A stretch of 64,000 bases of DNA from Escherichia phage vB_EcoP_SP5M. The notes beneath the pieces are model-generated. The model saw only the letters and a program-made list of their open reading frames with translations. It did no database searches and was not told the DNA's origin. Location: sequence record NC_070869.1; one strand, written 5' to 3'. A program made the position numbers and the translations under genes. Below, piece after piece: positions 1 to 48,417 of this stretch (within the stretch, counting starts at the first letter, position 1; every line of letters starts with the position of its first letter).

Positions 1-78
1 GGCTACACCCTTACACTCAACCATCCCCCCCGGTATGTTGACCGTGTATCCACTACCCTACCCCACCTTACACGTTAC

Positions 79-93
79 ACATGCTCCGCATGT
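79..93 (+). promoter_or_regulatory. Hairpin promoter of N4 virion-RNAP type (ACATGC-TCC-GCATGT, then TATGGA)
   Basis: Perfect 6-bp inverted repeat with 3-nt loop TCC (GGA on template strand); same architecture recurs at 893, 1153, 5693. Confidence 0.6.
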
Positions 94-135
94 TATGGAC
101 ATGTCGTCCTATCATCAACTATTGGAGCTATCATC

Positions 136-459
136 ATGACTACTACCGCTACTGTACGTATGACCGCAGGAACTTTACTTGGTACTGTTAACTCAGCTGC
201 TACTACTGTTGCAGATACCTTTGGTACAGCAACTAAAGCAGTAGGTATGCTTAACTCATATGTAAGTACTATGGCAGAGAAACAAGCCATTCGTACTAAA
301 TTAGAAATGCATACATTTGTTAATAAACTGGCAGAGGAAACAGCTATGACTGAGACTATGCGTAAGAAAAGTATTGAGGAATTCTGCAAGGATTCTGAAA
401 ATGCTCGTATCTATAACGCAGAATATTCTAAAGTAATTGACATCCTGTCTAAAGACTAA
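136..459 (+). CDS. Early hypothetical protein (107 aa)
   Basis: ORF track; GGAG upstream; lies between hairpin promoter and terminator. Confidence 0.6.
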   Translation: MTTTATVRMTAGTLLGTVNSAATTVADTFGTATKAVGMLNSYVSTMAEKQAIRTKLEMHTFVNKLAEETAMTETMRKKSIEEFCKDSENARIYNAEYSKVIDILSKD

Positions 460-466
460 GTCACCT

Positions 467-494
467 AGGAGACTCTTCGGAGTCTCCTGTTTTG
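467..494 (+). terminator. Rho-independent terminator
   Basis: AGGAGACTC-TTCG-GAGTCTCCT hairpin followed by GTTTTG. Confidence 0.6.
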
Positions 495-547
495 AACATT
501 AGATAGATAGTCAAAAGTAGATAACTATCTACTTTAGGAGATAGATA

Positions 548-886
548 ATGGCTAAGTACATTTGCGTAAAATCATTAACTAAAGATGTTCCTGTAGGAAC
601 AGAACTAGTAGGAAAATTCCACTCACCAGGAAGATTCATTCTTACTGAAGATAGTAAATTAAAGTGTGTATCTGGAATAGGACCACGTTGGTACAAAGAT
701 GACCAACTACCTCTTGCAGGTGCTTTATGGGTATGGCAATGCCAAGACCCTATTAAAGCTTTAGAACGCTATGAGAAAGCTGTTCGTGCCCATGAAATGC
801 TTGGTGCTCAAGACCCGGAAGATTGGCCTGGAATTGAGAAAGAATATGAATCTGCCAAGGCAGAATTGCTTAAACGCTTGTCTTAA
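548..886 (+). CDS. Early hypothetical protein (112 aa)
   Basis: ORF track; AGGAG 8 nt upstream of ATG. Confidence 0.6.
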   Translation: MAKYICVKSLTKDVPVGTELVGKFHSPGRFILTEDSKLKCVSGIGPRWYKDDQLPLAGALWVWQCQDPIKALERYEKAVRAHEMLGAQDPEDWPGIEKEYESAKAELLKRLS

Positions 887-892
887 AAACCA

Positions 893-907
893 AGAAGCTC
901 CGCTTCT
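893..907 (+). promoter_or_regulatory. Hairpin promoter of N4 virion-RNAP type (AGAAGC-TCC-GCTTCT, then ATTGGA)
   Basis: 6-bp stem, TCC loop; flank AAAACCAAGA shared with the copy at 1153. Confidence 0.6.
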
Positions 908-940
908 ATTGGATATCATTTAACTATTGGAGATTAAGCT

Positions 941-1147
941 ATGTATATTCATACTTCCCTGTTTGCAAACAAGAGTAACAATGGTGGATTGTTAGGTAAG
1001 ATTGATGCTCAGTGGAATCTTTGGTTCTCAGAGATTACTAACGTAACAGAGAGACAGCACTATGTTGCTTGTCACTCATTCCCTGCTAAGCCTACCAAGA
1101 AACAAATCCGTAAATTGCGTAGAGAGTTTCGCAAAGAAGCAATCTAA
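941..1147 (+). CDS. Small basic early protein, C-terminal AKPTKKQIRKL motif
   Basis: ORF track; paralogous C-terminus to ORF 1805..1990. Confidence 0.5.
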   Translation: MYIHTSLFANKSNNGGLLGKIDAQWNLWFSEITNVTERQHYVACHSFPAKPTKKQIRKLRREFRKEAI

Positions 1148-1152
1148 AACCA

Positions 1153-1167
1153 AGATGCTCCGCATCT
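1153..1167 (+). promoter_or_regulatory. Hairpin promoter of N4 virion-RNAP type (AGATGC-TCC-GCATCT, then TATGGA)
   Basis: 6-bp stem, TCC loop, conserved flanks. Confidence 0.6.
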
Positions 1168-1280
1168 TATGGATGATGTAAATGCATCCACTAATCATTG
1201 AAATCTTAAGTCTTTTCTTGGGTTTAGTCACCGACAGACAAACCCATCAATCAAATAATCATTTATCTGGAGAGTACAAA

Positions 1281-1661
1281 ATGTCTATTCAAAAATTCAC
1301 TTTCGGTCAATCTAACGCTGCTGCTACCACTGCTAAAACTGATAAACCAAAAGCTCAGTTCTGGTTGAACATTGGTTATGTAGCTAATGAAGGCTCTGAA
1401 GAAGAGAAGTTCATCTCTCTGCCTACTGGTATTCCACTGGATACTCAGGAGCCACTGCCTACTAATAGCAGCAATGCTGACTTCCGTGCTATGCGTTGTG
1501 CACAGAATGACTTGCTGGAACAGTTAATTGAGTATGCTCAGAACCTGGAACCAGGTGAGGAGGGTATCATTAACCTGCAAGTTCAACTTCGTCGTGTGAA
1601 AGCAGAGGCTGCTGACATCCCAGCAGACGAGAATAAATATGCTCGTAAACTGGCTTTCTAA
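1281..1661 (+). CDS. Early hypothetical protein, acidic C-terminus (start moved to internal ATG with GGAGAG SD)
   Basis: ORF track 1182..1661; internal Met (MSIQKF) has a proper SD; terminator follows. Confidence 0.5.
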
Positions 1662-1670
1662 TCAATCACT

Positions 1671-1699
1671 AGACTCCCTTCGGGGAGTCTTTTATTTTT
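1671..1699 (+). terminator. Rho-independent terminator
   Basis: AGACTCCC-TTCG-GGGAGTCT hairpin followed by TTTATTTTT. Confidence 0.65.
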
Positions 1700-1804
1700 A
1701 ACTAGACGATAAGCTATTTCTACTTTTTGAGTATCTTTAGACGAAGGGTACTGAAACAGTAACCAGATAGATATAGATTTATATTAGATGAAGGAGTAAC
1801 CATT

Positions 1805-1990
1805 ATGCGTACATTATGTAACCGTTATAACTCGCAGAAGATGATTAATATGTTACAACCTTGGGGTAGTAAGATGTCACTGAATGCACGTTGGCAGGTG
1901 TCTGTAAAAGATGAGAATGGTCACTGCCATGACCACTTCTTTGCAGCTAAACCTACTCGTAAACAAATCCGTAAACTTCATAAGGCATAA
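1805..1990 (+). CDS. Small basic early protein, C-terminal AKPTRKQIRKL motif (paralog of 941..1147)
   Basis: ORF track; shared C-terminal motif. Confidence 0.5.
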   Translation: MRTLCNRYNSQKMINMLQPWGSKMSLNARWQVSVKDENGHCHDHFFAAKPTRKQIRKLHKA

Positions 1991-1994
1991 GACT

Positions 1995-2213
1995 ATGTTG
2001 GACTTCATTGCGTTTGTAATACTCTGCTATGTGCTATATCGCCTACGCGGTTACATCCTCAATGGAGCCAAATGGGTAATTACTAAGCTGGTACTTATCT
2101 GTAAGCTACCTGTTGTATTCATTAAGTGTCTGTTTGCTTCCATTGTAGCTAAAGAGGTGCGTAAGCAACTATGGGCTAAGGAAGCTGAAGAGTTTGCAAA
2201 GAGGAACCAGTGA
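1995..2213 (+). CDS. Small hydrophobic membrane protein (internal start of ORF 1911..2213)
   Basis: ORF track; hydrophobic segments; start inferred to avoid overlap. Confidence 0.35.
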   Translation: MLDFIAFVILCYVLYRLRGYILNGAKWVITKLVLICKLPVVFIKCLFASIVAKEVRKQLWAKEAEEFAKRNQ

Positions 2214-2510
2214 TATTCACTAACATAGAAGATGCCATTGAAGAATGCATCTTTCGTAGGTATCACACTGGTGTACAGAAACGACACTATGGTGTTGTGC
2301 AACTCAATGGCTATCAAATGGTTGTAAGAATTGTACGTAAGAGTAAACCTTTTAACTTTATGTGGAGTACTAAATCATGCGCAAGTCATTAATTATGGGA
2401 ACCAAAGAAGACGTACAAAAGATGAAAGAGCGTCTGGCTGCTAAGAAACAGACTTCTGAACCAGTACGTAAGATTGTTACCTTCAATCATCCATGTATCA
2501 AATAGCAGGG

Positions 2511-2540
2511 AGTCCTCCATTAGGAGGGCTTCTATTTTTT
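2511..2540 (+). terminator. Rho-independent terminator
   Basis: AGTCCTCC-ATTA-GGAGGGCT hairpin followed by TCTATTTTTT. Confidence 0.55.
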
Positions 2541-2583
2541 ATTCTTGAATAGTTAGATATGCATTTAAATAGGAGAAATAACC

Positions 2584-2901
2584 TTGAATGAAATTGTTTG
2601 TATACTTCCTCAATCAGCTAAGATAGCTGACCGGAATATACGTATTCACCTACCTTTTCCATTAAGTAATCCATTCACTCGTAATGAAAGAACCACAGTA
2701 GAAGATGTAGAGGTAGCTTATGAAGCTTACCTTCGTAATCGTCTTATTAGTGGTGACAAACTAATTACAGCAGAGATGGAAAGGATTGCTTCCTTTGTAA
2801 CAGATAGTACAGGTAAGCCTGTTGGTTTAATTGGTACTGAATCTGATGTTAACGTTATTCGTAAAATACTAATGGAGGCACTAAGTGAACAACCTCAGTG
2901 A
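2584..2901 (+). CDS. Hypothetical protein (105 aa), TTG start
   Basis: ORF track; AGGAG 8 nt upstream of TTG. Confidence 0.45.
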   Translation: MNEIVCILPQSAKIADRNIRIHLPFPLSNPFTRNERTTVEDVEVAYEAYLRNRLISGDKLITAEMERIASFVTDSTGKPVGLIGTESDVNVIRKILMEALSEQPQ

Positions 2902-3118
2902 TGTAATTGTAGGTAATGAGATATTCATTGACCGAAAAGGTTATGCCCGAATTAAACTAAAGGGTAATAACAGAACTATTGTTCGTAAGGTGTACTCTAA
3001 ACCTTTTAGCAATTTCTCTATTGATGAAGTACGTATTAATAACAAGATGTACTTCATAGATAGTAAAGTATCTGTATGTCATACGGATGGTAAAACCTCT
3101 CTTGAATATACTTACTAA
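2885..3118 (+). CDS. Hypothetical protein (77 aa)
   Basis: ORF track; tight packing with neighbours. Confidence 0.4.
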   Translation: MNNLSDVIVGNEIFIDRKGYARIKLKGNNRTIVRKVYSKPFSNFSIDEVRINNKMYFIDSKVSVCHTDGKTSLEYTY

Positions 3119-3130
3119 GGAATAAACAAA

Positions 3131-3352
3131 ATGCTGTTCAGCACTAATTATGGTATTTGCCCAATTTGCAATAAAGGAAGAGGAGTTGCCAATCATAAGA
3201 AGTGTAGTCGTATTCTACAGAAACGACGGAACCAGAAAGAATGGGATAAGATATTAGAAAACCAACACAAAGATGAGTTCAAGAAGACGGCTGTTAAGGC
3301 ATCTACTCAGCTCATTCGTCGTACTAACTTCATAAAAGGTTATCAGAAATGA
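3131..3352 (+). CDS. Small basic Cys-containing (CPIC...C) protein
   Basis: ORF track; Cys pattern. Confidence 0.4.
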   Translation: MLFSTNYGICPICNKGRGVANHKKCSRILQKRRNQKEWDKILENQHKDEFKKTAVKASTQLIRRTNFIKGYQK

Positions 3353-3705
3353 AACTAATCGTGGCTGGTGGAAGAGACTTCGTTAATACCCAAGTAATGA
3401 TTACGGTATTAATGGATTTAGTGGAGAAGGGTAAGATTGACCCTAATCCTGAATTAGTATGTGGTATGGCTCGTGGTGCTGATATGCTTGCATACAGCCT
3501 ATGGGCTAACCACAATATGAAAATCCATACATTCCCGGCAGATTGGAAAACTCACCCAAGAAGTGCTGGATATATTCGAAATGCAGAAATGGGTAATTTT
3601 GCAGATGTACTTGTTGCCTTCTGGGATGGTAAATCCAGAGGAACCAAGCACATGATTGATATCATGCAAAGGCTAAATAAACCTGTATACATCGTGAGGT
3701 ACTAA
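3349..3705 (+). CDS. SLOG/DUF2493-like Rossmann-type protein (DprA/LOG-like)
   Basis: Motifs IVAGGRDF ... CGMARGADMLAYSLWA recalled as SLOG family pattern. Confidence 0.45.
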   Translation: MKLIVAGGRDFVNTQVMITVLMDLVEKGKIDPNPELVCGMARGADMLAYSLWANHNMKIHTFPADWKTHPRSAGYIRNAEMGNFADVLVAFWDGKSRGTKHMIDIMQRLNKPVYIVRY

Positions 3706-3963
3706 ATGATTATTACATATCCTACCTGTAGACCATTCAATTATATGGGGCAAACAATTGCAATACCCTTGTGGGTTAAATATGTTGCCCTGTTGCCACG
3801 TACATATACTAGTAATAACTCTTCCCTTATGGGTTTTGTAAGAAAGCCCAAACTAACTGCCGAAGGTACTTGGGTATCTAAAGGAAGGCAGGAAGAAATT
3901 GGTATCTGTAATTATGTACCTGAAGATAATAAGACCTATTTAACATTGGAGAAGGTGAAGTGA
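3706..3963 (+). CDS. Hypothetical protein (85 aa)
   Basis: ORF track only. Confidence 0.3.
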   Translation: MIITYPTCRPFNYMGQTIAIPLWVKYVALLPRTYTSNNSSLMGFVRKPKLTAEGTWVSKGRQEEIGICNYVPEDNKTYLTLEKVK

Positions 3964-4274
3964 AAACTATTCTAGTAGTTCATGATTCTACATTTACCGA
4001 TGTAGATAAGATGATGCGTAATATTGATTATGTATCTCAGACAAGCCAAGCATTCAATGAAGAGTTTACTCTGTACTGTAATGCTGAATCTCCACTGGTT
4101 CCTATTATTAAGGAGTCAGGTATACCCTTCTCTACAGAGAACTTCCCGGAAGAACCAGACTATGTAATCTCATTTATATATGACTTACATGATGGTTCAG
4201 GGACTAGTGAATTAGCTATGAACCAGTGGCGTAGTAAACGTCCTGTGTTCGCATTTCAGGTACTTAAACCATGA
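3960..4274 (+). CDS. Hypothetical protein (104 aa)
   Basis: ORF track; overlapping stop/start. Confidence 0.4.
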   Translation: MKTILVVHDSTFTDVDKMMRNIDYVSQTSQAFNEEFTLYCNAESPLVPIIKESGIPFSTENFPEEPDYVISFIYDLHDGSGTSELAMNQWRSKRPVFAFQVLKP

Positions 4275-4651
4275 AGATTATGTCATTAGGTGACGACACC
4301 AATGCTTTATTAGGTGTATCTGCACGTCCAATTATCATTGTTAATAAACATCACGGTAAATCCGGTGAGTATATTGGACGTGGTTCACCTCTTGGAAATC
4401 CATTCGTCATTGGTAAACATGGAACCAGAGAGCAAGTAATTGCTAAGTATAAAGTCTGGCTACAAGAACAGATTGATAAAGGTAATCCAGTTGTACTGGA
4501 TGAACTCAATCGTCTGGGTAATAAAGCCATTGACGAGAAAGGACTAGCCTTACAGTGCTTCTGTTATCCGAAACCATGTCATGGTGAGGTTATTAAAGAG
4601 AAGCTAGTACAGGCTATGTATAACTACTTTGTGGAGAATCCTAATGGGTAA
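4271..4651 (+). CDS. DUF4326-like protein
   Basis: YIGRGSPLGNPF ... CFCYPKPCHG pattern recalled as DUF4326. Confidence 0.45.
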   Translation: MKIMSLGDDTNALLGVSARPIIIVNKHHGKSGEYIGRGSPLGNPFVIGKHGTREQVIAKYKVWLQEQIDKGNPVVLDELNRLGNKAIDEKGLALQCFCYPKPCHGEVIKEKLVQAMYNYFVENPNG

Positions 4652-4892
4652 GCCAAAGAACCATTCCAAAGAATGGGATAATCTAGATAATACTAACTTA
4701 AAATTATTAGTGGAATCTAATAAGTCTTTTGTAGAAATATCAAATATTATGCAGAGAACTCTTGCAGCTACTATAACCCAAGCTCAAAGGTTAAACCTAA
4801 TCCATGTACAAGATGTTGGAGGAGAATTAAGAAGTAAGATTATTTATAAAATTACTTACTTAGAATCCATACCATGGAGTACTTTCAAATGA
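4629..4892 (+). CDS. Hypothetical protein (87 aa)
   Basis: ORF track only. Confidence 0.3.
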   Translation: MWRILMGKPKNHSKEWDNLDNTNLKLLVESNKSFVEISNIMQRTLAATITQAQRLNLIHVQDVGGELRSKIIYKITYLESIPWSTFK

Positions 4893-5074
4893 ATAAACAG
4901 TGTAATTGTGGTAAAGGCTATGTATCCCAATGGGATAACAAGTGTGGTAAATGCCGAACCAAGAAAGAACAACGCGATCATGAGTATGCTCTTACTTATT
5001 TAGAAATGACACGTAACTATAACAATATGACCGCACATGATGCTTATATTTATAATAGAGAGGCTTGTAAATGA
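4874..5074 (+). CDS. Small zinc-ribbon-like protein (CNCG...CGKC)
   Basis: ORF track; Cys pairs. Confidence 0.4.
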   Translation: MEYFQMNKQCNCGKGYVSQWDNKCGKCRTKKEQRDHEYALTYLEMTRNYNNMTAHDAYIYNREACK

Positions 5075-5687: not shown

Positions 5688-5692
5688 GTAAT

Positions 5693-5707
5693 AGCTGCTC
5701 CGCAGCT
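5693..5707 (+). promoter_or_regulatory. Hairpin promoter of N4 virion-RNAP type (AGCTGC-TCC-GCAGCT) upstream of RNAP II genes
   Basis: 6-bp stem, TCC loop, followed by TTGGGGA. Confidence 0.55.
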
Positions 5708-5720
5708 TTGGGGATATAAA

Positions 5721-5975
5721 ATGGATACAACTGCTGTAAGCATTGGGGAGATTGTAAAAAGAAAACATCAATTAAAATGGAGAGATTATCATCTATTAAA
5801 ACATCTTATTCGTATGACTGTTTCAAGCCCTACTCTACAATATTCAGAAGTAAGTGTACTAGGGGTAAGATTATCGATGTTTACCCATAGAGAGGTCGTA
5901 TCAAAGAGTATATTTATAAGCTGCTACTTCGATAAAAGTATTGGCAAATATGAATTCAATTGTTTTATTAAATAA
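5721..5975 (+). CDS. Hypothetical protein (84 aa)
   Basis: ORF track. Confidence 0.35.
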   Translation: MDTTAVSIGEIVKRKHQLKWRDYHLLKHLIRMTVSSPTLQYSEVSVLGVRLSMFTHREVVSKSIFISCYFDKSIGKYEFNCFIK

Positions 5976-5998
5976 ACTAATTTATTAGGAGATATGCG

Positions 5999-6817
5999 AT
6001 GTACTCATCTATTGAACATCAGAAGCAGCTTGAAGTCCTATTCAATAAAAATCAATTACTGCCTCGCATGAGGAAGGAATTCGAGGACTCCAAAGAAATT
6101 GACTTTAAGGCATTCGCTGCCTATTTAGAAATTGATTATAAGCTGCTCATTGATGCAATGGTGCAGATTGCCCTACATAAACGTGCTGACATCCAGACTA
6201 TGATTGGCTCTCTCATGAGTCACTCAGATGATGCTCAGTACATCGCTGACTGTCTGTATAAGATGGCAGAGAATGACTGCTTCAACTATGACCCTACCAT
6301 CGACAAGTTCGGTGTTATCTATGAGATTAGTGAAGATGTCCAAATGGAACTGGAAGCATTCCAGTATCCATTACCTATTGTAAGTGCTCCTAATCCCGTT
6401 AGAACTAACAGAGATACTGGTTACTACCAGACTAAAGGAAGCATCATACTCAAGAAGAACCATCATGAGATGGATGTCTGCCTTGACCACATCAACCGTA
6501 TGAACAATCAACGTCTTTGCATTAACTGGGACGTTGCCAACTATGTAAAAGACTCTCGTCCTAATATGGATAAACCCAAAGAAGGTGAAACCCGTCAGGA
6601 CTATGAGAAACGAGTTAAAGCCTTTGAGAAGTACAGCCGTACTGCTAAGGAAGTAATGGAGTTAGTGACTCAGGAAGGCAATAACTTCTCACTGGGTCAC
6701 AAATATGACAAACGTGGGCGTACTTACGCTCAGGGCTATCACATCAACTATCAGGGAACCAGCTACAACAAAGCTGTACTGGAGTTCGCTGATAAGGAGT
6801 TAGTAAATGAAGACTAA
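5999..6817 (+). CDS. Phage RNA polymerase II small subunit (N4 gp15-like, N-terminal half of a split T7-like RNAP)
   Basis: Size (272 aa) and position directly before the catalytic subunit; promoter hairpin upstream. Confidence 0.65.
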   Translation: MYSSIEHQKQLEVLFNKNQLLPRMRKEFEDSKEIDFKAFAAYLEIDYKLLIDAMVQIALHKRADIQTMIGSLMSHSDDAQYIADCLYKMAENDCFNYDPTIDKFGVIYEISEDVQMELEAFQYPLPIVSAPNPVRTNRDTGYYQTKGSIILKKNHHEMDVCLDHINRMNNQRLCINWDVANYVKDSRPNMDKPKEGETRQDYEKRVKAFEKYSRTAKEVMELVTQEGNNFSLGHKYDKRGRTYAQGYHINYQGTSYNKAVLEFADKELVNED

Positions 6818-7024: not shown

Positions 7025-8242
7025 ATGCAACTGTTAACTGCCCGTGAATACCTGAAAGTAGATATCGCTAACAACTATGGCTTAGATAAAAAGACATGGG
7101 ATGAACGTATTAGCTGGTTCGATGAGAATGAAACTAACCTGCTTAATCTGGTAGATGAAGCTGAAGAATCTGCACTGTTCTATGCTGGTGTAAACGCATG
7201 GAAAGATATGAAAGCTGGTAAACCTATTGGTTATGCCGTAGCTCTGGATGCTACATCATCTGGCTTACAGTTACTGGCTTGCCTGACTGGTGACCGTTCT
7301 GCTGCTGAACTATGTAACGTAGTTAACTACATGGGTGAGAATGGTAAACCATTACGACGTGATGCTTATACAGTTATCTATCATAAGATGTTGGACATCC
7401 TTGGTGAAGCATCTCGTATTAAACGTAGTGACACCAAGCAGGCAGTTATGACTGCGTTCTACGGTTCAGAAGCCAAGCCTAAAGAAGTATTCGGTGAAGG
7501 TATCCGTCTCAAGACTTTTGAGAATGTAATGGAAACTGTTGCTAGTGGCCCTTGGGCACTGAACAAGTTCTTACTGCAATGCGGTAACCCGGATGCTAAC
7601 CGTTACGTATGGATACTGCCTGACAACTTCCACGCTGTCATTAAGGTCATGGTTCCTGAAGTACAGACCGTTAACTTCTTAGGTAAACCATTCGATATCA
7701 CACGTATGGTTCAGGGTACTGAAGAGAAGACACGTATGCTCTCTGCTAACATCACCCACTCTATTGATGGGATGGTGGTACGTGAGATGCTACGTCGTTG
7801 CAACTTCGACATGAACCAGGTGAACTATGTTAAGTCCCTCTGCGAAGGAACCAGTGATTATATGGTTGCCCCTGATGATAACTATGAAATGGTTAACACA
7901 CTGTGGTCTAACTATGAGAAGTCTGGCTACCTGTCTACCCGTATCTTTGATTATCTGGACTCAGAAACGATTGAATTGGTTGATACAGATGTAATCATGG
8001 CTATGCTCAATACCATGCCTAAGAAACCATTCCCTGTAATGACTGTACATGACTGCTTCCGTTGTCATCCTAACTATGGCAATGACCTGCGTCGTCAGTA
8101 CAATCAGATTCTGTCTGACATTGCTAAGAGTGACCTACTGGGCTTCATCCTGTCTCAGGTACTGGGACAAGAGTTCTCTGCTGGTAAGCTGGATGACAGC
8201 CTCTGGCAGGACATTCTTGAAACAGACTATGCATTAAGTTAA
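7025..8242 (+). CDS. Phage RNA polymerase II large subunit (N4 gp16-like, catalytic half of T7-like RNAP)
   Basis: YAVALDATSSGLQLL (motif A-like) and VHDCF (motif C-like); 405 aa. Confidence 0.75.
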   Translation: MQLLTAREYLKVDIANNYGLDKKTWDERISWFDENETNLLNLVDEAEESALFYAGVNAWKDMKAGKPIGYAVALDATSSGLQLLACLTGDRSAAELCNVVNYMGENGKPLRRDAYTVIYHKMLDILGEASRIKRSDTKQAVMTAFYGSEAKPKEVFGEGIRLKTFENVMETVASGPWALNKFLLQCGNPDANRYVWILPDNFHAVIKVMVPEVQTVNFLGKPFDITRMVQGTEEKTRMLSANITHSIDGMVVREMLRRCNFDMNQVNYVKSLCEGTSDYMVAPDDNYEMVNTLWSNYEKSGYLSTRIFDYLDSETIELVDTDVIMAMLNTMPKKPFPVMTVHDCFRCHPNYGNDLRRQYNQILSDIAKSDLLGFILSQVLGQEFSAGKLDDSLWQDILETDYALS

Positions 8243-8248
8243 TAAACT

Positions 8249-8286
8249 GGCCTCATTCCTTCGGGAGTGAGGCCTTTTATTTTTTG
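8249..8286 (+). terminator. Rho-independent terminator
   Basis: GGCCTCATTCC-TTCG-GGAGTGAGGCC hairpin followed by TTTTATTTTTT. Confidence 0.65.
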
Positions 8287-38067: not shown

Positions 38068-41000
38068 TTAGTTTACTAAGTTCATCCAAGGGTTCAGGTT
38101 GTGAGCACGAAGCCCCTGACCAAAGCCCCATGAGTAATCCAGACTACCCTTAGCAGCAATGCTAAAGATGTTGTCCTGAATAGGTAAGCCAACGTTACCA
38201 AACATGGTAGGAGTTGGAGCCAGCATCGCCATTGCTGCATGTACTGGGTTGTTACGAATCATGGACACTGCAACTTTTGCTGAACGAATCTTAAAGTTGT
38301 AGAACCACATTAAACCAACACTTTCCATATACCCACGGAAGCGACCCGGCAGACGGTCATAGTTAACGAACTCTTCCGTTACACGTCCCAGTGCTTCTTC
38401 ACGAGTCTTACCTTTACGCTGGGTCAGTTCATCATAGATGATTGCTTTAGCGATAAAGTCAGAGTACTCAACAGTCTTCTGGATACCCTGGAACAAAGCA
38501 GTATCCTTAGTGATAAGTGCATAACGACCAGCAGTACGCACTGACTTAGGTAACTTATCAGCCAGCTTATCCATGTATTCGTGAAGTTTGCCCTCAGTAA
38601 TCAGGATGTCATCACGACCGATACCAGCATCCGCAATTGAAGAGAACTCACCAGCTTCTAACAGAGGCCAGATACTCATACGCTTATGGCTATCAGTAAT
38701 GGACTGAATCTCAGCCTTAAGTTTACGAATCTGGTTCGGGTTAGTAGCTGCACGTAATTCTGCTTCTGCATCTACCTGACGTAGACGAGATTTCAGGTAC
38801 TGATTAATCTCAGCAGTCTTCTGTGGAATGCTCTTAGCAATGTTCTTAACCGGTACGCCACGGGCAACCATCTGGTAAAGGTTAGCCAAGAAGTTAACAG
38901 CAGGTACGACTACTGACTTAACTACAATCAGAGTCTTAGCTTCTTTAACTAAGTTTTGAACCAGGTTCTCACCACCCATTGTGTACTTATATGCACGGTT
39001 ACCAAATACACCCAGCATAGCTTTCTTGAAGGTATCCAATGTTTCTGGGGACCAACGAGAATTACCAGACCAAGCATCCCCAACGGAAGCTGCACGATAA
39101 CCAAGTGCATCATTCAGCATGTCACGACGCACCCACAGTTCACCTTCACCGAATAAACTCTCTGCTTTCCGTCGAGTTTCACTGTTCATCAGCTTGAGAG
39201 CATCAGCAGTTACTGGGTCCAGTTTAGAACCAAGAAGATTCACATACTGGGACTTATTAGAGGCAGACATTTTAATGTCGTTCTCATACATGCTATGCAG
39301 GTTCTCAATCAGCATATCGTTGAAGCGTTGAGCCTTAGCTTCTTCCACCTGACGACCACGCCATACACCAATTGCACGGGCAAGATGGTTCTCACCTTCA
39401 ATGTGCTTCAGCATGTTAGGGTCAATGGATTGCTCATAGGCAACTACATTACCTTTATCGTCATATACTGGCAGCAGTGGTTCGTTGCCACGTTCACCAC
39501 GAGCCAGTGCTTTAGTGATACGGTCTACGGAAGGTTTGTCAGTAATACGACCAGCTACCATTGAACCTACCGTAAATCCTGTACCAAGATCTACACCACC
39601 AGCAGTATCACGAACGTTCTGTAGGATACCCTGTGAGAATGGAGCCTGTGCCTGTACTGGTGCAAAGTAGTAGCTACGTGCTGGACCACGGTTAGCAGAG
39701 CTACCTTGATAAGTACCAAGACGTACATAGGACTTCTCAATCAAATCACCAAACTGGCTATCTTCAGCAACAATCAGATTAACACCCTGTTTAGTCTCAC
39801 TAGGGATATGCCCTTTGTACTGGTTCAGAGTTGCACGTGGGTCAGACTTGGCTTTAGCCATTTCATCTTTACGCTGACCAACCAGATAAGAAGTAGCAAA
39901 GTCCATTCCATCAACTTCTGTCTGAGCCAGTGAAGATAACATTTCACGGTCAGACTTGTTCATTGCTTCCAGTGCATACAGGGTAATAAGTTTATCCAGT
40001 TGAGCTACATCTACAGTAGATCGAGCAGCCTGACGTTCACCCAGCATACGGGAGATTGCAGTAGCATTACGCAGTAGGTTATTACCAACTGTACCGTTAA
40101 TCATGTACTGAGCCAGTTGCTTAGATTTACGATTAATCAGGGGCCAGTTACGACCAGCTTGTTTCTGCAAATCTGCTTCCAGCTTATTCACTTCACGGTC
40201 AACAATCTTCTGGTCAGACAGCAGGTCACGGATTTCAGCCAGAGACATAGTATCCCGAAGAACAGCTAAGTCAGTTTTACCCATACCAGTGTGCATTGCT
40301 TTCCACTCATCATTAGTCAGCTTACGACTGAACTTAGATGCGATAGTGGTAGGCAGATGTTCACGGAATTGCTGTCGGTCTGCTTGTACCTGTGCACGAA
40401 CTGCTTTAATCAAATCGTATACAGAAGCATTGCTCTTAGTACGACCGGTTAAGTCATTAATTAAGTCATGAAAAGGTTGCCATACCTTACCCTGGTTCAT
40501 TGCTGCCATAACACCTTCAGCTACAATTGCACCATTCTTCTCTGTAGCAATAGCAGCTACCAGTTGTGCAGCATGAGCAGCACCTTTGACCAATGGGTTC
40601 TTAGTATTAGCTGCAACTTCACGAGCACTTTCTAAAGCACGAGTAGACAGTGCATCAATAGAATCCACCAGATACTGGTTAGCTCGGTCAATAGCATTAC
40701 CACTGGGAGTAGCAACGGAATCATAGAATGACTGTGCATTGAGGCTAGTCTGCATGATTGTCTGAGCCAGTGCATCCATACCTTCCTGTACGTTAGTAGC
40801 TTTGGTATCACCTGCTACACGGGCATTCAGGCTAGACATTGCAGCAGTACCAATGTTAGTCAGCATTGCATCAACGGTATTACCAGATTTCTTATCTGCT
40901 TTCATAACTGGAATGTTAGCCAGTACATTACGTACTTCTTCGCTAACCATTGCCAGACCAACAAAGGTAGGCAGTAAGGAAGAACGACCCTGTGCATCAA

Positions 41001-44000
41001 ACTCAATGTTGTTAGCACCCATGATTGTATCGAACTTCTGTTGAGCATAGTAACGGTCAGCAGGGTTAGTACTATCTGGGTCAGCCATGAATGCTTCAAC
41101 GGTCAGGTTCTTAGTAACGTGTGCATAGTATTCCTGTACACGAGAAAGAGCTGCCGGACTAATAGCAGCTTCGGTAGCCAGTGCAGCAACGATATTAGTG
41201 AACAGACGTTGCTCCTGCATATTCATAGTGAAGCCATGGGCCTGAACATCACGGGTTACTTTAGTTGCATTCACTACTGCATCAGAGAACTTACCTTTAC
41301 GAATTACTTGCTGTACTGGTTCAGAACCAATGTAGTTAGTAATCAGTTTATCAAAGGTCTGCCCCAACTCTTCCAGACGGGTATTGTCACCGTATGCCTT
41401 GTTATGGAACAAGGTAGTGTCCTTGGATACAGCAGCAGTAGGAGCCTGTCCACGCATAACCACAGAGGAGTTAAACAGTAAGCCAGAGAACATATCATCT
41501 GCATTAGCAGGTGCTTTCTTGCGACCAAATACCAGACGCTTGATTGCTTCATACACAGACTGAACCATAGCTTTCAGTGCTGTGGTCTTCTTCTGCTTAC
41601 CAATCAATTCACGGTTGGTTAAACCCCAAGCCATGTACTCATTCAGTGCAGCAGCTTTAGCCATTGCAGGTTCAATGAAGCCATTAGACAGGTGACCATT
41701 AATGGTAATAAGTGCATCAGCATATGCTTCACGTACTGCCGGAGATTCGTTCTTAACATCCAGAGTACGGAACTGGTTCATCAGGTCTTCAATATTCTGG
41801 ACTGCTTCATTATGAGTACCCTCGTAGTGAGCCAGTACAGATTCAAAAGTGGAAGCATGTACCAATTCATGAACCAGAGTCTCTAAGGAAGGGGTAACTA
41901 AGTAGATGGTCTTATCATCGAAGTTAGTCCAACCATACGCATTACCTGCTTCGGCAGCTTCAATATCTTCCGGTGCTGGACGGGTAATGTTCTTCTCAAT
42001 AGCATAAGCATCCAGTTGAGCAGGTGTACCGTAAACAACCTTGTAGTCTTTAGCAGCAAGAGATTTCTGTACTTCCTTCAATACTGCTTGCTGCTCAGGA
42101 GACATCTCTTTAGCCAGCTTAGTAATAGCAGTATTGGACAGCAGACGTACACCAGACTTAAGTACACGACCAACTTGTTCCATTGCTGGAATTTCTTTCA
42201 CTGGTTCTGCTTTAGCAGCACGTACTGCATCACGACGCTTGTTTAATTCAGCATCAAACAGTTCGTTCAACTTAGCTACTTGCTGGTCTACAGTCAGACC
42301 TTCCAGAGAGATTTTACCGTTATTCACATAAGGAGCACCTACAGCAGCCATCTGGTCAACAGTGGTCTGCACCTGGTTCATTACTTTGTGGCGAATATCT
42401 ACACCAAGAGCAATGTTACGCAGGTTACGTTCAATCTGTTCAGCACCTGCACGTAACAGGTCATCAGTAGCTCCCTCACGCTGGTCATATTCCAGAGCAG
42501 ATTTAGCGATAGCCTGTTTGGTTTCATCAGACAGTTTGCTGAAGTCTACATTCTTCATGAACTTAGCGTAGGAGTCATAAACATTCTTGATAGGGTTACC
42601 CTGCCAAGAAGTGTATACAGCCTCGTTAGCTTTGCGACTTGCATCAGTGATGTCACTGATACCAATGTTCATACCATCAAAGATTTTCAAGGTATTCTTT
42701 GGAGCACCTTTCATAGTAGAAAGGGTCTGCATCATCATGCCATCACCAGTACCGATGGTCATAAATGGAATACCTGCAACACCTGCCTGTGAAGGAGCAT
42801 AGATGCTCATTGGCACACGCATACGGTCATCTAAGTTGGTAGCCAGTACTTGGTTAGCAACATCAGTATTCTCACTACCAGCAATGTAGAAAGTCTGTGA
42901 GCCAGTCTCAATCATTGGAGCCAGTGGAGATAAAGATTCCTGGATTTCATTCAGTTCTTTCTGTGTTAAGAAATCACCCTTCTTCCAGGTTGAGTCTTTT
43001 TCTTTTTCTGCCAGCTTAGCCTGTACTGCTTGCTGGAACATATCCTGCAATACCAGAGACTGAATCTGGGTAGCCTTCTGCAAGTTCTCAGTAGAGTGCA
43101 TCAGACCTTCACCAACAGTATTACGGATACCAGTACGCATTGGTTCAACGAACAGGTAGAGCATGTTCTCTTGTAAGTTCTTCAGGGCATTACCGGATAC
43201 GGTAAATTTCTGAGGGTTTAACTTACCAGTCAGAGCACCATCTACTTGCTGAATAGACAACTCACCTTTACGCACAACTGGAACATTGCCAGTCAGTGCT
43301 TCCATAGAAGTAAGGAAAGTATCCAGCATAGCCTGAGCATCAGCCTCAGACGCAGCCTCCTTACCAAACATTGCCATAGCTGGGGAAATGCTAGGGTCAG
43401 CAGCCCGTGCTTGCAGAACGTCACTGAGGCGTTCATAGATGGTGTCAGTAATTGCACTAACCATCTTACCAGCAATACCACGAGCACCAGAACCATAGAT
43501 GGTAATGGTCAGTGGGTTTTTGGCGATACCACGTTTCAGGTCCAGAGTACCGTCTTCATTCAGGTTGAAGTCTTTAATGAACAAGTCCATTAACTTCTGA
43601 AGATGGTTCATCTGGCTCATAACTGGAACGTTGTTACGGTAAGTAGTACGTAACTCATTCAGGGCTTGTTGCAGACCATTGGTAGATGCTTCATACAGGT
43701 CAACACTGTCATCCTGTGAACGATGCTCGTTCATAGTCTTACCAGCTTTACCAAAGAACAAACCACCCTTAGCAGTATTCTTAATCCAGTCTGGAGTGAA
43801 CTTACCACCAGTCATTAATACCATTGCGTTGATTGGGCCGTTAGTTACACCATCAGCTTCAACGTACAGTGGAGTATTAAAGTTGGCACGGTCATCGCTG
43901 TTCAGGTAACGAGCATATTCCATCAGAGCCATGAGAGCCACGAAGGATTTGTCACCACCCAGAGAAGTCTTCAGGATATCTACTGCATCAGCAGGTAAGT

Positions 44001-47000
44001 GACCAGACTTATCGAACTCAACCATCATATCAACAGCTGGCTTCAGATTGCCTTCCAGAGCCTTGGTCAGCTTTTCAGACATAGCCTCACGGGACATGTT
44101 ATGTACCTTGATGCCCAATGCCTGAGCCAGTCCTAGCTGGAAGTCAGAGTACGCTTGGCTGTTTTCATTACTTAAGTCGATAGTAGAGAAGGTCGGCAGA
44201 ATTGCTTCACGAACCAGTTTACTGGATTGTGGGTTGTTCTTACCAAGCATCTGCATACGGCCTACACGAGTCATGTTGTAACTGTAGTGAATAGGAGTAT
44301 CCAGTCCATTCTCTTGTTCTCGTATCTGATTAATTACACCGAACAGAGAATCATATGCCATAGACACGGACAGGTTTTTACCTTCCAGAGATTTAGCAGT
44401 GTTCTCATTCAGTAAGTCAGGATTAAGAGTACCAGCACCCATCAGTTCCAGAATGTTGTCACGGCCTAATGCTTCATAGAAGTTAACCATCGGCATATGT
44501 ACACGGAACTCAGTAGCCTGTTCAGCTTTCAGAGCAGCTTTCTGCTCAGGGGTATTTTTAACAGCAGGATTACGTAACTGAGTTTGAGCCACGGAAGGAA
44601 TGTCATCACCGAAGTACATTTTCTCTTCCGGATTTACCAGCACAGCTTCCTCAATTGCTGTAGGGAAATCATTAATAGGGTCTTTATCTGCCAGCTTATT
44701 AATGGTGTACAGACCAACAGTCTTATTAGAGTCTGGGTCAATCTCAGACACATCCAGCATAGTCTCAGTAACTGCACCCATCTCAATGAGAGAAGACAGA
44801 ATCTCTGTAGCCATTGCCATTGGGATACCTTTTGTATATCCCAAAGGTGCATTAGGATTGCGATTTAAACCCCAGTAGGATTCAATCTTCTGAGCCAGTG
44901 AGCTAGTAGCTTCAACCAGAGTCTGGGCATTCTCAAACTCAGCCAGAATACTTTCTGGTAACAGAGATGCTTCTACACCAGTAATAGCAGCTACATCTTT
45001 CATATCTTTAATAGCAGCATTCTGTGTAGCAGTCAGTCGCCATTGCAGACCAGCAAGCACAGCAGTCTCTAACAACTGGTCATTGAACTTAAAGGTATCA
45101 CCATCTCGTTCAACGATATTCAGCAGTTTGCCACCTACCCAACGATTAGCCTCAGTACCTTCTGCAAAACGTTTACCAACATTTTTGTTAGCAAGGAACT
45201 TAGCCAGTCGTTCAGACAGAGTAGTCTTCAGAGTTTCCCCAAAGTCCATCAAGTCCTGATAACGTTTCATCACATCACTGGTGAGAGCGTTATTTTCTTT
45301 TTGAGTGAATGCTTCAAAGCGAGCAGCAGAAGACAGTGCTTGCTTAATATCAGTCAAAGGAGATTCAGAACCAATGGTACGGGACTTAGGTTCTTCTGGT
45401 AGGGTAAATGCTTTCAGGAACTGGTTCGGTGTCTTTTCATTGTTATAGACAGGGAACACTGTTTCCATTTCTGTTTTGGTTTCGACTACTTCCTGGGTAG
45501 CATCTACTGTTTCAGATTCAGTAGTAGAGACTTCTTCTGCTTTTGGACTAGTCTCCTTAGTAGGAGCAGTCTTATTTTCTACCACTGGTTTAGATTTAGG
45601 CTGTACAGTAGTAGTGTCCTCTTGCACTGGTGCAGGAGATTCATCAACCTGATTCACTGGTTCATTGGTCTGTTGGGATTGAGCAGCATCAAGACTGCCC
45701 TGACGGAACTCTTTAACTACCTGAGCAGCAGGCTTGTTCAGACGTGGATCCAACGAGGTAACTTTCACATGAGAAACATTAAGCTCCGGGTAAGCCGTAG
45801 CAAGTGCATTAGCAATATCAGCTACGGTTTTGGCCTCCAGTCCTACTTGCTGGGCAAACTTAACAGACTTGGTATCATAAGGATTGACACCGAGACCAGT
45901 ACGACTACGTACCCATTCACGGGAAGGCGAGAGAGCCTGATAATGAACAGACTTATTCTTATCCGCATTCCCAGAAATCAGATGCTCATTCAACGCTCCG
46001 ACCTTATTCTGCATGTGCTGGGCGAACTTCATAAAGTCGCTCAGATAAGCGGAGGCCAAATCGAAGTTACCAGAGTTATACGCAGAACGAATGCGTTTCG
46101 CATGTTGCAACGCAGAGTACTGTCCTTCGTTAGAACGAGACTCGTCGGTTTTAATCTGTTTACTAACAATGTCTTGAGGACGTAAGCCTAGTTCTTCTGC
46201 TTTAGCGTCGAACTCACGTGCACCCTGTAATAAGGCAGCAGCCGATTGCAGGGCAGCACGTTGACGATTCCCCAGTGTAATCTTACCTTCACTTGCATGT
46301 TTCAGAACCATGTTCACTGAATCTGCGTCCAGTACTTCTGGAGACACATCAGCAGCCATAGCAATGTTGTTTGCTTGGGCTTGGTTAGCTTCTTCAGTAG
46401 CTTTCAGCTTACCTGCTTCAGCCTGTTCCTGAATCATGGAATGGATAGCACGGAATGCACGGAGTACTTTAGGGGTATTCTGTACGTTAGCCATCAGACC
46501 GGAGAACTGGTCTACGATAGTAGCAGCAGGGGAACCTTGTTCCAGATTAGCCAGAGCACCTGGGTCACGGTTAATGAAGCTATCCATAGACATGATGTTG
46601 TCATACATCTGGATTGCAGCTTCCATTTGAACGTTAGGGTCTTCGGCAGTATTAACCAGGTCAGCCATCTTCTGAATAGCTTCTACACGGTTAGTGGAAC
46701 CAGAAACAGCTTCACGGATTACTGGGTTAGCTTGTTCCAATTCTACTGGGTCAAACTTCATTGCCTGAGTTAAGTCAGCAGCATACTGAGTAGCAGCAGC
46801 TTTCTCTTCTGGAGTGATATCCATTGCATCTACTGCTTCCTGTACAGTTGCTTGTGCTTGCTCTGCCTGAGCAGCAGCTTCCTGTGCAGCAGCGTTAACC
46901 GTAGCATCAGCTACAGGGGATGCTTGTTCATTACGCTTAGCAACTTCTTCACCACGTTGAACCAGGATGTTAGTAAGAGGAGATGCAGCTTTTGCTAATG

Positions 47001-48417
47001 TTTTACCAACCAGAGAAGCACCAGCCAGAGTAGTACGAAGAGCAGGACCAGCAGCAGCTCCGGCAGCTTTAACAGTTGCACCTGGAGCTTGAGCAACCCC
47101 AGCACTACCGAAGCCATAAAGTGCACCAAGACCTGCTTGCTCACCAACCCCTTTGAGAGTGTCACGGGATGCATCAACATTTTCCTTGATTGCACGGTTC
47201 TGGGCATACTGACCAAAGCCTGACTGAATACCTTCCTCTACAGTCTCACGAAGCATATTAGAACCAGCACCTGCCAGTGAACCTACCTTAAGTGGATTAA
47301 GTTCAAACTTGGATACCAGTGGACCAGTAGCAGCAGCAACTGGGGCAGTTAAGCCAGCAGCAATGATACCTGTTTCGGATGCAGTCTGACGACGTGCTTC
47401 ATCAGGAGATAATCCATCAGCAATATGTTGTTGGTAAACAGGAGATTTACTTGCCAGTTCTTGATGAGGCATCTTCATGATTTCAGAAGCAGTCTGTTGG
47501 TATGCACCACCAGCTTCCATACCACCGATTGCAATAGCAGGTGCAGCAACACGACCAGCAGACAATGCAACCTGTGCAGGACGTGAACCTAACTCAGCAG
47601 CTAAGGTAATACCCTTAACAGCTTTATCCCCTCCTACCATTACTTTACCGAGTGCAGATACACCACGGATAAGTGGACCACCAGTAAAGAGGGAACCAAC
47701 ACCTTCACTCAGTCCATCGGAGGCAGCCATACCATTATCAAGTGTATTAGCAACAGAATCGAAAGCATCACGACCAATGCGGGACAAGGAGGCAACCAAA
47801 TCGCTCTCCCCGTTTTTGATGTCTTGTTCATAAAGTTTCTGGTTCTTTTGAGCAGAAATCTGGTTCTGATTCTGAACAACTTTACGGGTAGCATTCAGTG
47901 CATCAGACTGTAAATTGTGTACACCTTCATTCAACCAATCCATCCCGGAAGCAATGGATGCCCCGGCATTATCATTGACCAGACCTGTGCCAAGAGCAGC
48001 AATGCCCCCAAGGGTATTAGCAACACCAAGACCAACACCAGAAAGAGTATCGCCAAATGCTTCTGCGTTAGTACGTTGTTTAGATAAGTCCTGACGTACA
48101 GCATCAGCAGCATTAGCTCGGCTATTAAGAATTTGTAGACCCTGCTCATTACCGTATTTATTAATGATTTCTAAGGGGGAGGCTTGAGTGAAATCTGCCT
48201 GAAGTGAACCTGGTTCGAATGCACCGATTCCAAGATTACCTACTCGTCCGGTCTGGAGATTGTAAGCATTCTCTGGGGTTAATTGGAAAGGGCTTTGCCC
48301 TTGTGCAGCTTGCTTCTGAGAGGTTGCAGTAGAGACATCGACTTGCTTAGCATTAGTGATGCTGTCTGCGAAACCTGCCAGACGGTCAAATGTTGACATA
48401 GCATGTTTCCTGTTCAA
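38068..48417 (-). CDS. Virion-encapsidated RNA polymerase (N4 gp50-like vRNAP), 3449 aa
   Basis: Giant ORF at the N4 vRNAP position; TRVGR (T/DxxGR-like) and other RNAP-like motifs in the central region. Confidence 0.85.
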   Translation of the reverse strand: MNRKHAMSTFDRLAGFADSITNAKQVDVSTATSQKQAAQGQSPFQLTPENAYNLQTGRVGNLGIGAFEPGSLQADFTQASPLEIINKYGNEQGLQILNSRANAADAVRQDLSKQRTNAEAFGDTLSGVGLGVANTLGGIAALGTGLVNDNAGASIASGMDWLNEGVHNLQSDALNATRKVVQNQNQISAQKNQKLYEQDIKNGESDLVASLSRIGRDAFDSVANTLDNGMAASDGLSEGVGSLFTGGPLIRGVSALGKVMVGGDKAVKGITLAAELGSRPAQVALSAGRVAAPAIAIGGMEAGGAYQQTASEIMKMPHQELASKSPVYQQHIADGLSPDEARRQTASETGIIAAGLTAPVAAATGPLVSKFELNPLKVGSLAGAGSNMLRETVEEGIQSGFGQYAQNRAIKENVDASRDTLKGVGEQAGLGALYGFGSAGVAQAPGATVKAAGAAAGPALRTTLAGASLVGKTLAKAASPLTNILVQRGEEVAKRNEQASPVADATVNAAAQEAAAQAEQAQATVQEAVDAMDITPEEKAAATQYAADLTQAMKFDPVELEQANPVIREAVSGSTNRVEAIQKMADLVNTAEDPNVQMEAAIQMYDNIMSMDSFINRDPGALANLEQGSPAATIVDQFSGLMANVQNTPKVLRAFRAIHSMIQEQAEAGKLKATEEANQAQANNIAMAADVSPEVLDADSVNMVLKHASEGKITLGNRQRAALQSAAALLQGAREFDAKAEELGLRPQDIVSKQIKTDESRSNEGQYSALQHAKRIRSAYNSGNFDLASAYLSDFMKFAQHMQNKVGALNEHLISGNADKNKSVHYQALSPSREWVRSRTGLGVNPYDTKSVKFAQQVGLEAKTVADIANALATAYPELNVSHVKVTSLDPRLNKPAAQVVKEFRQGSLDAAQSQQTNEPVNQVDESPAPVQEDTTTVQPKSKPVVENKTAPTKETSPKAEEVSTTESETVDATQEVVETKTEMETVFPVYNNEKTPNQFLKAFTLPEEPKSRTIGSESPLTDIKQALSSAARFEAFTQKENNALTSDVMKRYQDLMDFGETLKTTLSERLAKFLANKNVGKRFAEGTEANRWVGGKLLNIVERDGDTFKFNDQLLETAVLAGLQWRLTATQNAAIKDMKDVAAITGVEASLLPESILAEFENAQTLVEATSSLAQKIESYWGLNRNPNAPLGYTKGIPMAMATEILSSLIEMGAVTETMLDVSEIDPDSNKTVGLYTINKLADKDPINDFPTAIEEAVLVNPEEKMYFGDDIPSVAQTQLRNPAVKNTPEQKAALKAEQATEFRVHMPMVNFYEALGRDNILELMGAGTLNPDLLNENTAKSLEGKNLSVSMAYDSLFGVINQIREQENGLDTPIHYSYNMTRVGRMQMLGKNNPQSSKLVREAILPTFSTIDLSNENSQAYSDFQLGLAQALGIKVHNMSREAMSEKLTKALEGNLKPAVDMMVEFDKSGHLPADAVDILKTSLGGDKSFVALMALMEYARYLNSDDRANFNTPLYVEADGVTNGPINAMVLMTGGKFTPDWIKNTAKGGLFFGKAGKTMNEHRSQDDSVDLYEASTNGLQQALNELRTTYRNNVPVMSQMNHLQKLMDLFIKDFNLNEDGTLDLKRGIAKNPLTITIYGSGARGIAGKMVSAITDTIYERLSDVLQARAADPSISPAMAMFGKEAASEADAQAMLDTFLTSMEALTGNVPVVRKGELSIQQVDGALTGKLNPQKFTVSGNALKNLQENMLYLFVEPMRTGIRNTVGEGLMHSTENLQKATQIQSLVLQDMFQQAVQAKLAEKEKDSTWKKGDFLTQKELNEIQESLSPLAPMIETGSQTFYIAGSENTDVANQVLATNLDDRMRVPMSIYAPSQAGVAGIPFMTIGTGDGMMMQTLSTMKGAPKNTLKIFDGMNIGISDITDASRKANEAVYTSWQGNPIKNVYDSYAKFMKNVDFSKLSDETKQAIAKSALEYDQREGATDDLLRAGAEQIERNLRNIALGVDIRHKVMNQVQTTVDQMAAVGAPYVNNGKISLEGLTVDQQVAKLNELFDAELNKRRDAVRAAKAEPVKEIPAMEQVGRVLKSGVRLLSNTAITKLAKEMSPEQQAVLKEVQKSLAAKDYKVVYGTPAQLDAYAIEKNITRPAPEDIEAAEAGNAYGWTNFDDKTIYLVTPSLETLVHELVHASTFESVLAHYEGTHNEAVQNIEDLMNQFRTLDVKNESPAVREAYADALITINGHLSNGFIEPAMAKAAALNEYMAWGLTNRELIGKQKKTTALKAMVQSVYEAIKRLVFGRKKAPANADDMFSGLLFNSSVVMRGQAPTAAVSKDTTLFHNKAYGDNTRLEELGQTFDKLITNYIGSEPVQQVIRKGKFSDAVVNATKVTRDVQAHGFTMNMQEQRLFTNIVAALATEAAISPAALSRVQEYYAHVTKNLTVEAFMADPDSTNPADRYYAQQKFDTIMGANNIEFDAQGRSSLLPTFVGLAMVSEEVRNVLANIPVMKADKKSGNTVDAMLTNIGTAAMSSLNARVAGDTKATNVQEGMDALAQTIMQTSLNAQSFYDSVATPSGNAIDRANQYLVDSIDALSTRALESAREVAANTKNPLVKGAAHAAQLVAAIATEKNGAIVAEGVMAAMNQGKVWQPFHDLINDLTGRTKSNASVYDLIKAVRAQVQADRQQFREHLPTTIASKFSRKLTNDEWKAMHTGMGKTDLAVLRDTMSLAEIRDLLSDQKIVDREVNKLEADLQKQAGRNWPLINRKSKQLAQYMINGTVGNNLLRNATAISRMLGERQAARSTVDVAQLDKLITLYALEAMNKSDREMLSSLAQTEVDGMDFATSYLVGQRKDEMAKAKSDPRATLNQYKGHIPSETKQGVNLIVAEDSQFGDLIEKSYVRLGTYQGSSANRGPARSYYFAPVQAQAPFSQGILQNVRDTAGGVDLGTGFTVGSMVAGRITDKPSVDRITKALARGERGNEPLLPVYDDKGNVVAYEQSIDPNMLKHIEGENHLARAIGVWRGRQVEEAKAQRFNDMLIENLHSMYENDIKMSASNKSQYVNLLGSKLDPVTADALKLMNSETRRKAESLFGEGELWVRRDMLNDALGYRAASVGDAWSGNSRWSPETLDTFKKAMLGVFGNRAYKYTMGGENLVQNLVKEAKTLIVVKSVVVPAVNFLANLYQMVARGVPVKNIAKSIPQKTAEINQYLKSRLRQVDAEAELRAATNPNQIRKLKAEIQSITDSHKRMSIWPLLEAGEFSSIADAGIGRDDILITEGKLHEYMDKLADKLPKSVRTAGRYALITKDTALFQGIQKTVEYSDFIAKAIIYDELTQRKGKTREEALGRVTEEFVNYDRLPGRFRGYMESVGLMWFYNFKIRSAKVAVSMIRNNPVHAAMAMLAPTPTMFGNVGLPIQDNIFSIAAKGSLDYSWGFGQGLRAHNLNPWMNLVN

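Follow-up and report, generated by a model that had tools for sequence, protein, structure and literature searches.

The closest described systems are the early promoters P1, P2 and P3 of phage N4 (Haynes and Rothman-Denes 1985, Glucksmann 1992, Gleghorn 2008, as reviewed in PMC4496689). An N4 promoter has a short stem and a 3-nt loop; the virion RNA polymerase (vRNAP) of N4 recognises the template positions −11 (A or G), −10 (G), −8 (G) and +1 (C), and it also needs the loop-closing pair and the 5′ G and 3′ A of the loop, while the other stem bases are free if paired (PMC4496689). The template −8 G is contacted in N4 by residue R904 via the major groove. In Klebsiella phage KP8 (Kaypoctavirus, MG922974) putative early promoters P1–P4, found by similarity to N4, are located at 89-110, 962-983, 1225-1246 and 5963-5984 (PMC6950046). 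Early hairpin promoters of Pseudomonas phage LUZ7 have 5′ ends mapped by ONT-cappable-seq (PMC9163698), and early hairpin promoters have also been called in silico in LIT1, LUZ7, PEV2 and Pectobacterium CB1-like phages. The G7C record contains no promoter features, and a literature search found no paper on early promoters of G7C-like phages (the G7C paper itself was outside the search).

The window, the whole 64-kb stretch of DNA that was analysed, is the left 64 kb of a Gamaleyavirus, a G7C-like N4 relative (Schitoviridae). Its first 3 kb match ∼80 public phages, the best with ∼94% identity, all of them G7C-like coliphages or their neighbours. The earlier note, made from the sequence of this DNA, had placed the window near the left end of the genome, which agrees with the alignment of base 1 to N4 base 7 and G7C base 8; compared with the records of N4, G7C and KP8, the first ∼6–8 nt of the left terminus are missing from the window. 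The non-coding segment 1-78 is conserved with the left termini of these three phages, with GGCTACACCC, a C7 tract (25-31) and CCTACCCCACCTTACAC (57-73) in common, and appears conserved as well as the neighbouring genes, or better. This conservation suggests, at the sequence level, a role in terminus formation, packaging or ejection.

We found four hairpin elements in the first 5.7 kb of the window:

79..99, plus strand, hairpin 1: stem 79-84/88-93, loop TCC at 85-87 (template 5′-GGA-3′), predicted +1 at G97
893..913, plus strand, hairpin 2: stem 893-898/902-907, loop at 899-901, predicted +1 at G911
1152..1173, plus strand, hairpin 3: 7-bp stem 1152-1158/1162-1168, loop at 1159-1161, predicted +1 at G1171
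5693..5713, plus strand, hairpin 4: stem 5693-5698/5702-5707, loop at 5699-5701, predicted +1 at G5711 (or G5710)

Direct reading confirmed the three perfect 6-bp stems with loop TCC that had been reported at 79-93, 893-907 and 1153-1167, as well as the box that follows each of them, (T/A)(A/T)TGGA. The sequences are ACATGC-TCC-GCATGT followed by TATGGA, AGAAGC-TCC-GCTTCT followed by ATTGGA and AGATGC-TCC-GCATCT followed by TATGGA, with A1152-T1168 as a possible seventh pair in the last one. The count of three copies was incomplete: the listed sites are real, but a fourth had been overlooked at 5693-5707, where AGCTGC-TCC-GCAGCT is followed by TTGGGG in a 33-bp intergenic gap between ORF 5427-5687 and ORF 5721-5975. 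All stems are perfect (6, 6, 7 and 6 bp for hairpins 1–4), each with a 3-nt loop.

The flank that the earlier note described as common to two copies, AAAACCAAGA, was found where it had been reported, at 886-895 and 1146-1155, ahead of hairpins 2 and 3, and its last 3 nt are also the first three of each stem. The ORF before each copy ends within the flank, with a TAA stop that covers the first base of the flank at hairpin 2 (ORF 548-886, stop at 884-886) and the first two bases at hairpin 3 (stop at 1145-1147). The AAAACC(A) part of the flank can pair with the start-site TGG to make a longer hairpin in both of these copies (886-914 and 1146-1174); the same flank is seen again in KP8, pSb-1 and other relatives.

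The four sites have every sequence determinant of N4 promoters, as the earlier note's assignment to the N4 virion-RNAP type would predict. The non-template GC-TCC-GC, that is, GC-GGA-GC on the template, is present at all four, so that the template order is G(−8)C(−9)-G(−10)G(−11)A(−12)-G(−13)C(−14) with closing pair C(−9):G(−13); the non-template C at centre+3, equivalent to the template −8 G, is found in each. The template has C at +1 (non-template G at 97, 911, 1171 and 5711), 11 nt from the loop centre, with a second G next to it. One claim of the earlier note had to be corrected here: it had put the start about 10 nt past the hairpin, while the N4 rule gives 11 nt from the loop centre, i.e. 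4 nt past a 6-bp stem. Folding of the template-strand DNA returned exactly the expected hairpin at all four sites, with −4.7 kcal/mol for hairpin 1 and a range of −4.7 to −5.7 kcal/mol; these energies are modest (z = −1.95 to −3.6), and nearest-neighbour energy models miss the special GGA loop. Judged by their sequences, the four elements are very probably early promoters for the virion-encapsidated RNA polymerase of this G7C-like N4 relative.

The motif was scored by a full rule that requires a T[CT]C loop, a stem of ≥5 bp and G at centre+11. In 50 kb of N4 this rule matched exactly three sites, with centres at 96, 565 and 4554; these correspond to P1, P2 and P3, which precede gp1, gp2 and gp15. 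By the left-end alignment with N4, G7C and KP8, hairpin 1 is the orthologue of N4 P1. Hairpin 3 is, on sequence comparison, the positional orthologue of N4 P2, because the downstream sequence GGATGATGTAAATGCATCCA aligns with N4 577-596. Similarly, hairpin 4, ahead of the RNAPII genes, is by sequence the orthologue of N4 P3 (centre 4554), with which its stem, AGCTGC/GCAGCT, is identical. Hairpin 2, as its position and flanking sequence indicate, is an additional P2-class copy. The three sites first listed are thus, by these alignments, P1, an extra P2-class copy and P2, rather than equivalents of N4 P1–P3. The annotation of Mimir124 has a direct terminal repeat of 403 bp at the corresponding end (1-403), and by analogy P1 probably lies inside a terminal repeat in this phage.

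The additional copy allows an alternative that we consider very unlikely: only the orthologues of P1, P2 and P3 (79-93, 1153-1167 and 5693-5707) would be active, and 893-907 would be left over from recombination or duplication at the edge of a cassette, contributing little or nothing to transcription. The flank in common with hairpin 3 is consistent with duplication, and the copy is absent in ECBP1, while in IME11 the closing pair is broken despite the same downstream ORF. The IME11 copy (locus L009, about 5618-5640) reads AGATGC-TCC-ACATCT, with the loop-closing G changed to A (GCTCCAC), and by the N4 rules it is probably a crippled promoter; IME11 keeps the cassette gene of the window, 96% identical. 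Against inactivity, every determinant is intact in hairpin 2, which matches the N4 P2 hairpin of the oligonucleotide used for the cryo-EM initiation complex (PMC13492108) exactly in the loop and the five inner pairs of the stem (template GAAGC-GGA-GCTTC). Also, the GG stands at the right distance and is followed by an RBS and an ORF, and an intact extra copy is kept in KP8, G7C and the related loci L005, L010 and L017.

The slot between hairpins 2 and 3 is occupied by at least five unrelated small ORF families among the relatives. Up to and including hairpin 2 the window and L005 are near-identical; the ORF sequences then differ completely, and similarity returns at the flank of hairpin 3. Homology is lost ∼20–30 nt after one promoter and is regained at the TAAAAC flank of the promoter that follows. 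The promoter-bounded swap was delimited as follows:

893-1167, window, cassette slot
5594-5850, L005, cassette slot
5618-5886, L009, cassette slot
970-1233, L012, cassette slot

That the hairpin promoters double as conserved joints for swaps of single early genes between Enquatrovirinae genomes is an idea we hold only tentatively and think rather unlikely. If the promoter repeat or its cruciform did actively drive the exchange, these phages would have a system of early-gene cassettes delimited by promoters. Roughly four vRNAP molecules per virion have been proposed for N4 (PMC13492108), a number that the four left-end promoters of the window could match by analogy.

The genes and terminators around the four elements, together with the gene of the polymerase, are as follows:

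136..459, plus strand, gp1 homologue, 107 aa, first early gene (66% identity to N4 gp1, blastp)
467..494, plus strand, terminator-like hairpin after gp1, AGGAGACTC-TTCG-GAGTCTCCT then GTTTTG (direct reading)
548..886, plus strand, small ORF, 112 aa, in a variable region, without its own hairpin promoter
941..1147, plus strand, one-gene cassette, 68 aa, between hairpins 2 and 3 (ORF list)
1182..1661, plus strand, gp2 homologue, 159 aa in the long form (67% identity to N4 gp2, full length)
about 1671..1700, plus strand, intrinsic terminator after gp2 (terminator scan)
5721..5975, plus strand, small ORF, 84 aa, first after hairpin 4 (KP8 has an ORF in the same position)
5999..6817, plus strand, RNAPII small subunit, N4 gp15 homologue (66% identity to N4 gp15, E = 3e-137)
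7025..8242, plus strand, RNAPII large subunit, N4 gp16 homologue (Pfam RNA_pol PF00940; T7-like RNAP fragment)
8249-8274, plus strand, terminator after the RNAPII large subunit (terminator scan)
38068..48417, minus strand, virion RNA polymerase, 3449 aa (four N4 vRNAP Pfam domains)

From this arrangement four transcription units can be predicted. P1 would serve gp1, with the transcript ending at the hairpin 467-494; the extra promoter (hairpin 2) would serve the 68-aa cassette gene and read on into gp2; hairpin 3 would serve gp2, ending at the terminator from 1671; and hairpin 4 would serve the 84-aa ORF and both RNAPII subunits, ending at the terminator 8249-8274. The claim that the hairpins define the early transcription units holds in so far as they stand upstream of gp1, gp2 and the RNAPII genes; it fails for ORF 548-886, and because this ORF has no such promoter, the four sites do not alone define all early units. 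In ECBP1, ORF 548-886 is kept with 95% identity, and elsewhere it is either absent or strongly diverged; it sits downstream of the terminator-like hairpin of gp1, and its expression would need read-through from P1 or a middle promoter. The terminator-like element at 467-494 has an N4 counterpart at 493-516; the terminator scan did not flag it because its T run is only 4 T long.

Several observations concern the translation and relationships of these genes. In N4, gp2 serves the middle RNA polymerase as its cofactor. No obvious RBS precedes the start codon of the long gp2 homologue, which lies 11 nt beyond the predicted +1 (1171); a strong GGAG RBS stands ahead of an internal ATG at 1281. The 33 additional N-terminal residues of the long form (1182-1280) are conserved with N4 gp2 at the protein level; therefore both forms of gp2 may be made. 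The transcript predicted for hairpin 4 has a 10-nt leader to the ATG at 5721, in which the 5′-terminal GGGGA is the sole Shine–Dalgarno-like element (5710-5721). The cassette ORF 941-1147 and ORF 1805-1990 appear, by sequence, to be paralogous early genes: their products are 37% identical over 41 aa (E = 5e-07 in a single comparison) and have a common C-terminal motif, AKPT(K/R)KQIRKL. The possibility that 941-1147 is the KP8 gene of that slot was rejected, as BLASTP gave no alignment between the two.

The vRNAP encoded in the window is 67% identical to N4 gp50 overall and 72% identical over the polymerase domain. All base-contacting residues are kept with respect to N4: K114, R119, W129, K849, K850, D901 and R904 are conserved. 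D559 and D951, which are catalytic, are likewise the same, and the only difference is at K267 in the intercalating hairpin, which is N in the window vRNAP.

Variation of the elements was examined in 37 related loci from IMG/VR, searched with the gp2 homologue. In ∼475 kb made of the window, 50 kb of N4 and the related loci, a stem of ≥5 bp accompanied 65 of the 83 GCTCCGC cores on the gene strand and none of the 11 on the opposite strand, while three extra pairs are expected by chance in 1/64 of cases. In a first set of sites, selected with the stem, G was found at +1 in 55/59 sites and at +2 in 56/59, and the −4 to −1 spacer was T/A-rich across the sites of relatives. Since the first set required a stem, so that pairing was built in, the covariation set was re-selected on the core and GG at +1/+2 only, without regard to the outer stem, which gave 53 distinct sites, 48 of them with a stem of ≥5 bp. 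Paired cells made up 85.7% in these 53 sites versus 66.8% after shuffling and ≤47% with the partner slid; pairs 3–5 showed all four Watson–Crick types with 71 double-sided changes, and the covariation score was reached in none of 500 shuffles. The outer stem thus covaries while the core is fixed across the 53 sites of relatives.

These data bear on a second alternative, that the repeats are antisense intrinsic terminators or duplex palindromes for a dimeric regulator or recombinase, which we regard as highly improbable. The terminator scan did flag the minus strand at 907-893 and 1169-1151 (hairpin followed by TGGTTTT), where hairpins 2 and 3 are terminator-like because of the AAAACC flank, but hairpins 1 and 4 lack a T run, and there are no minus-strand genes upstream to be terminated. 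The coincidence of cassette junctions with the repeats would also suit a non-promoter role such as a recombinase site; yet on the gene strand the loop reads TCC or TTC without exception, and stemmed sites number 65 on that strand versus 0 on the other. A symmetric duplex site would not need such strand asymmetry of the loop and is disfavoured for this reason. Both the invariant position of GG at centre+11/+12 and the agreement with contacts defined by biochemistry fit a promoter.

Two simpler assignments were also rejected. No T run follows any copy on the plus strand, which excludes an intrinsic terminator in that orientation. A sigma-70 host promoter was rejected as no sigma-70-like site (−35/−10 with 16–18 nt spacing) overlaps any of the hairpins; sigma-70-like sites were not enriched in 1-8500 (17 found versus 26.1 expected).

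The earlier note had proposed to look for the motif in the rest of the genome; searching the whole window added the one copy at 5693-5707, and the distribution is not random. The full rule had 4 matches in the window, all on the plus strand, in intergenic gaps and within the first 5.7 kb, versus 0.029 on average and never more than 1 in 1000 mononucleotide shuffles; the scan of both strands of the 64 kb produced nothing beyond the four hairpins. The GCTCCGC core occurs four times on both strands of the 64 kb, each time with a stem of ≥6 bp. A relaxed scan (one stem mismatch allowed) yielded five extra sites, non-canonical and all without the GC core. The fixed-spacing pattern GCTCCGCNTNTNWTGGA with ≤2 mismatches matched hairpins 1–3 only, missing hairpin 4 because its stem and start box differ, and was superseded by the rule-based scan. 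Hairpins with a perfect 6-bp stem and a 3-nt loop form a common class, with 41 in the window, but that the four arose as chance inverted repeats has a negligible probability given 4 matches to the specific rule versus 0.029 expected and sites that are conserved and covarying in relatives and orthologous to mapped N4 promoters.

In reading the four hairpins as vRNAP promoters, we infer by analogy with N4 where exactly transcription starts, that it depends on gyrase and SSB, and how strong the promoters are. By homology with N4, the left end of the genome would enter the cell together with vRNAP. Negative supercoiling driven by gyrase would then extrude each inverted repeat as a cruciform, and host SSB would melt the non-template hairpin while the template hairpin stays intact, its 5′-GGA-3′ loop presumably stabilised by a sheared G:A pair. 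The polymerase would dock on the template hairpin via the −11 pocket (W129/R119), K114 and the specificity loop (D901/R904) and start with GTP opposite the template C, with predicted +1 positions at 97, 911, 1171 and 5711. Transcription may help to draw the genome into the cell, as in N4.

What is gained is a predicted regulatory annotation for a Gamaleyavirus early region, where public records such as G7C list no promoters, with four exact predicted transcription starts that are directly testable. The understanding of N4-type transcription is unchanged; promoters of this class are routinely predicted in N4-like genomes.

Among the known systems, LUZ7 resembles the window in its 3-nt-loop hairpin, the preferred G start and an injected vRNAP as the reader. 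It belongs to a distant subfamily and differs in having nine early starts, stems of ≥4 bp and starts located 13–14 nt from the hairpin centre instead of 11; the start spacing is therefore not universal among N4-like phages. KP8 has the same four-promoter layout as the window, with promoters before gp1, a one-gene cassette, gp2, and a small ORF plus RNAPII subunit; the core is the same, the AAAACCAAGA flank is found on KP8 P2, and KP8 P4 lies where hairpin 4 does. KP8 is of a different genus, however, its stems differ and covary, its cassette gene between the second and third promoters is unrelated to that of the window, and its promoters are in-silico predictions only.

With N4 itself the window has in common the GC-T(C/T)C-GC core, a 5–7 bp stem, a 3-nt loop and a G start 11 nt from the loop centre, as well as sites on the same strand upstream of gp1, gp2 and the RNAPII genes and a cognate vRNAP that is 67% identical. 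The window differs in having four copies versus three in N4. Its P1 has loop TCC (−11G) and stem ACATGC, whereas N4 P1 has loop TTC (−11A) and stem GTTGC, and its −4 to −1 spacer is TTAT, TATT or TTTG as opposed to TTTT in N4 P2 and P3. While the N4 promoters were mapped experimentally, the four in the window are sequence predictions, and it is as predicted instances that they are added to a promoter class that is well known and has been characterised biochemically and structurally. The N4 promoter grammar, a fixed GC-GGA-GC core with a free but paired outer stem and a GG start, is found across Enquatrovirus, Gamaleyavirus and Kaypoctavirus, together with the contact residues of the enzyme.
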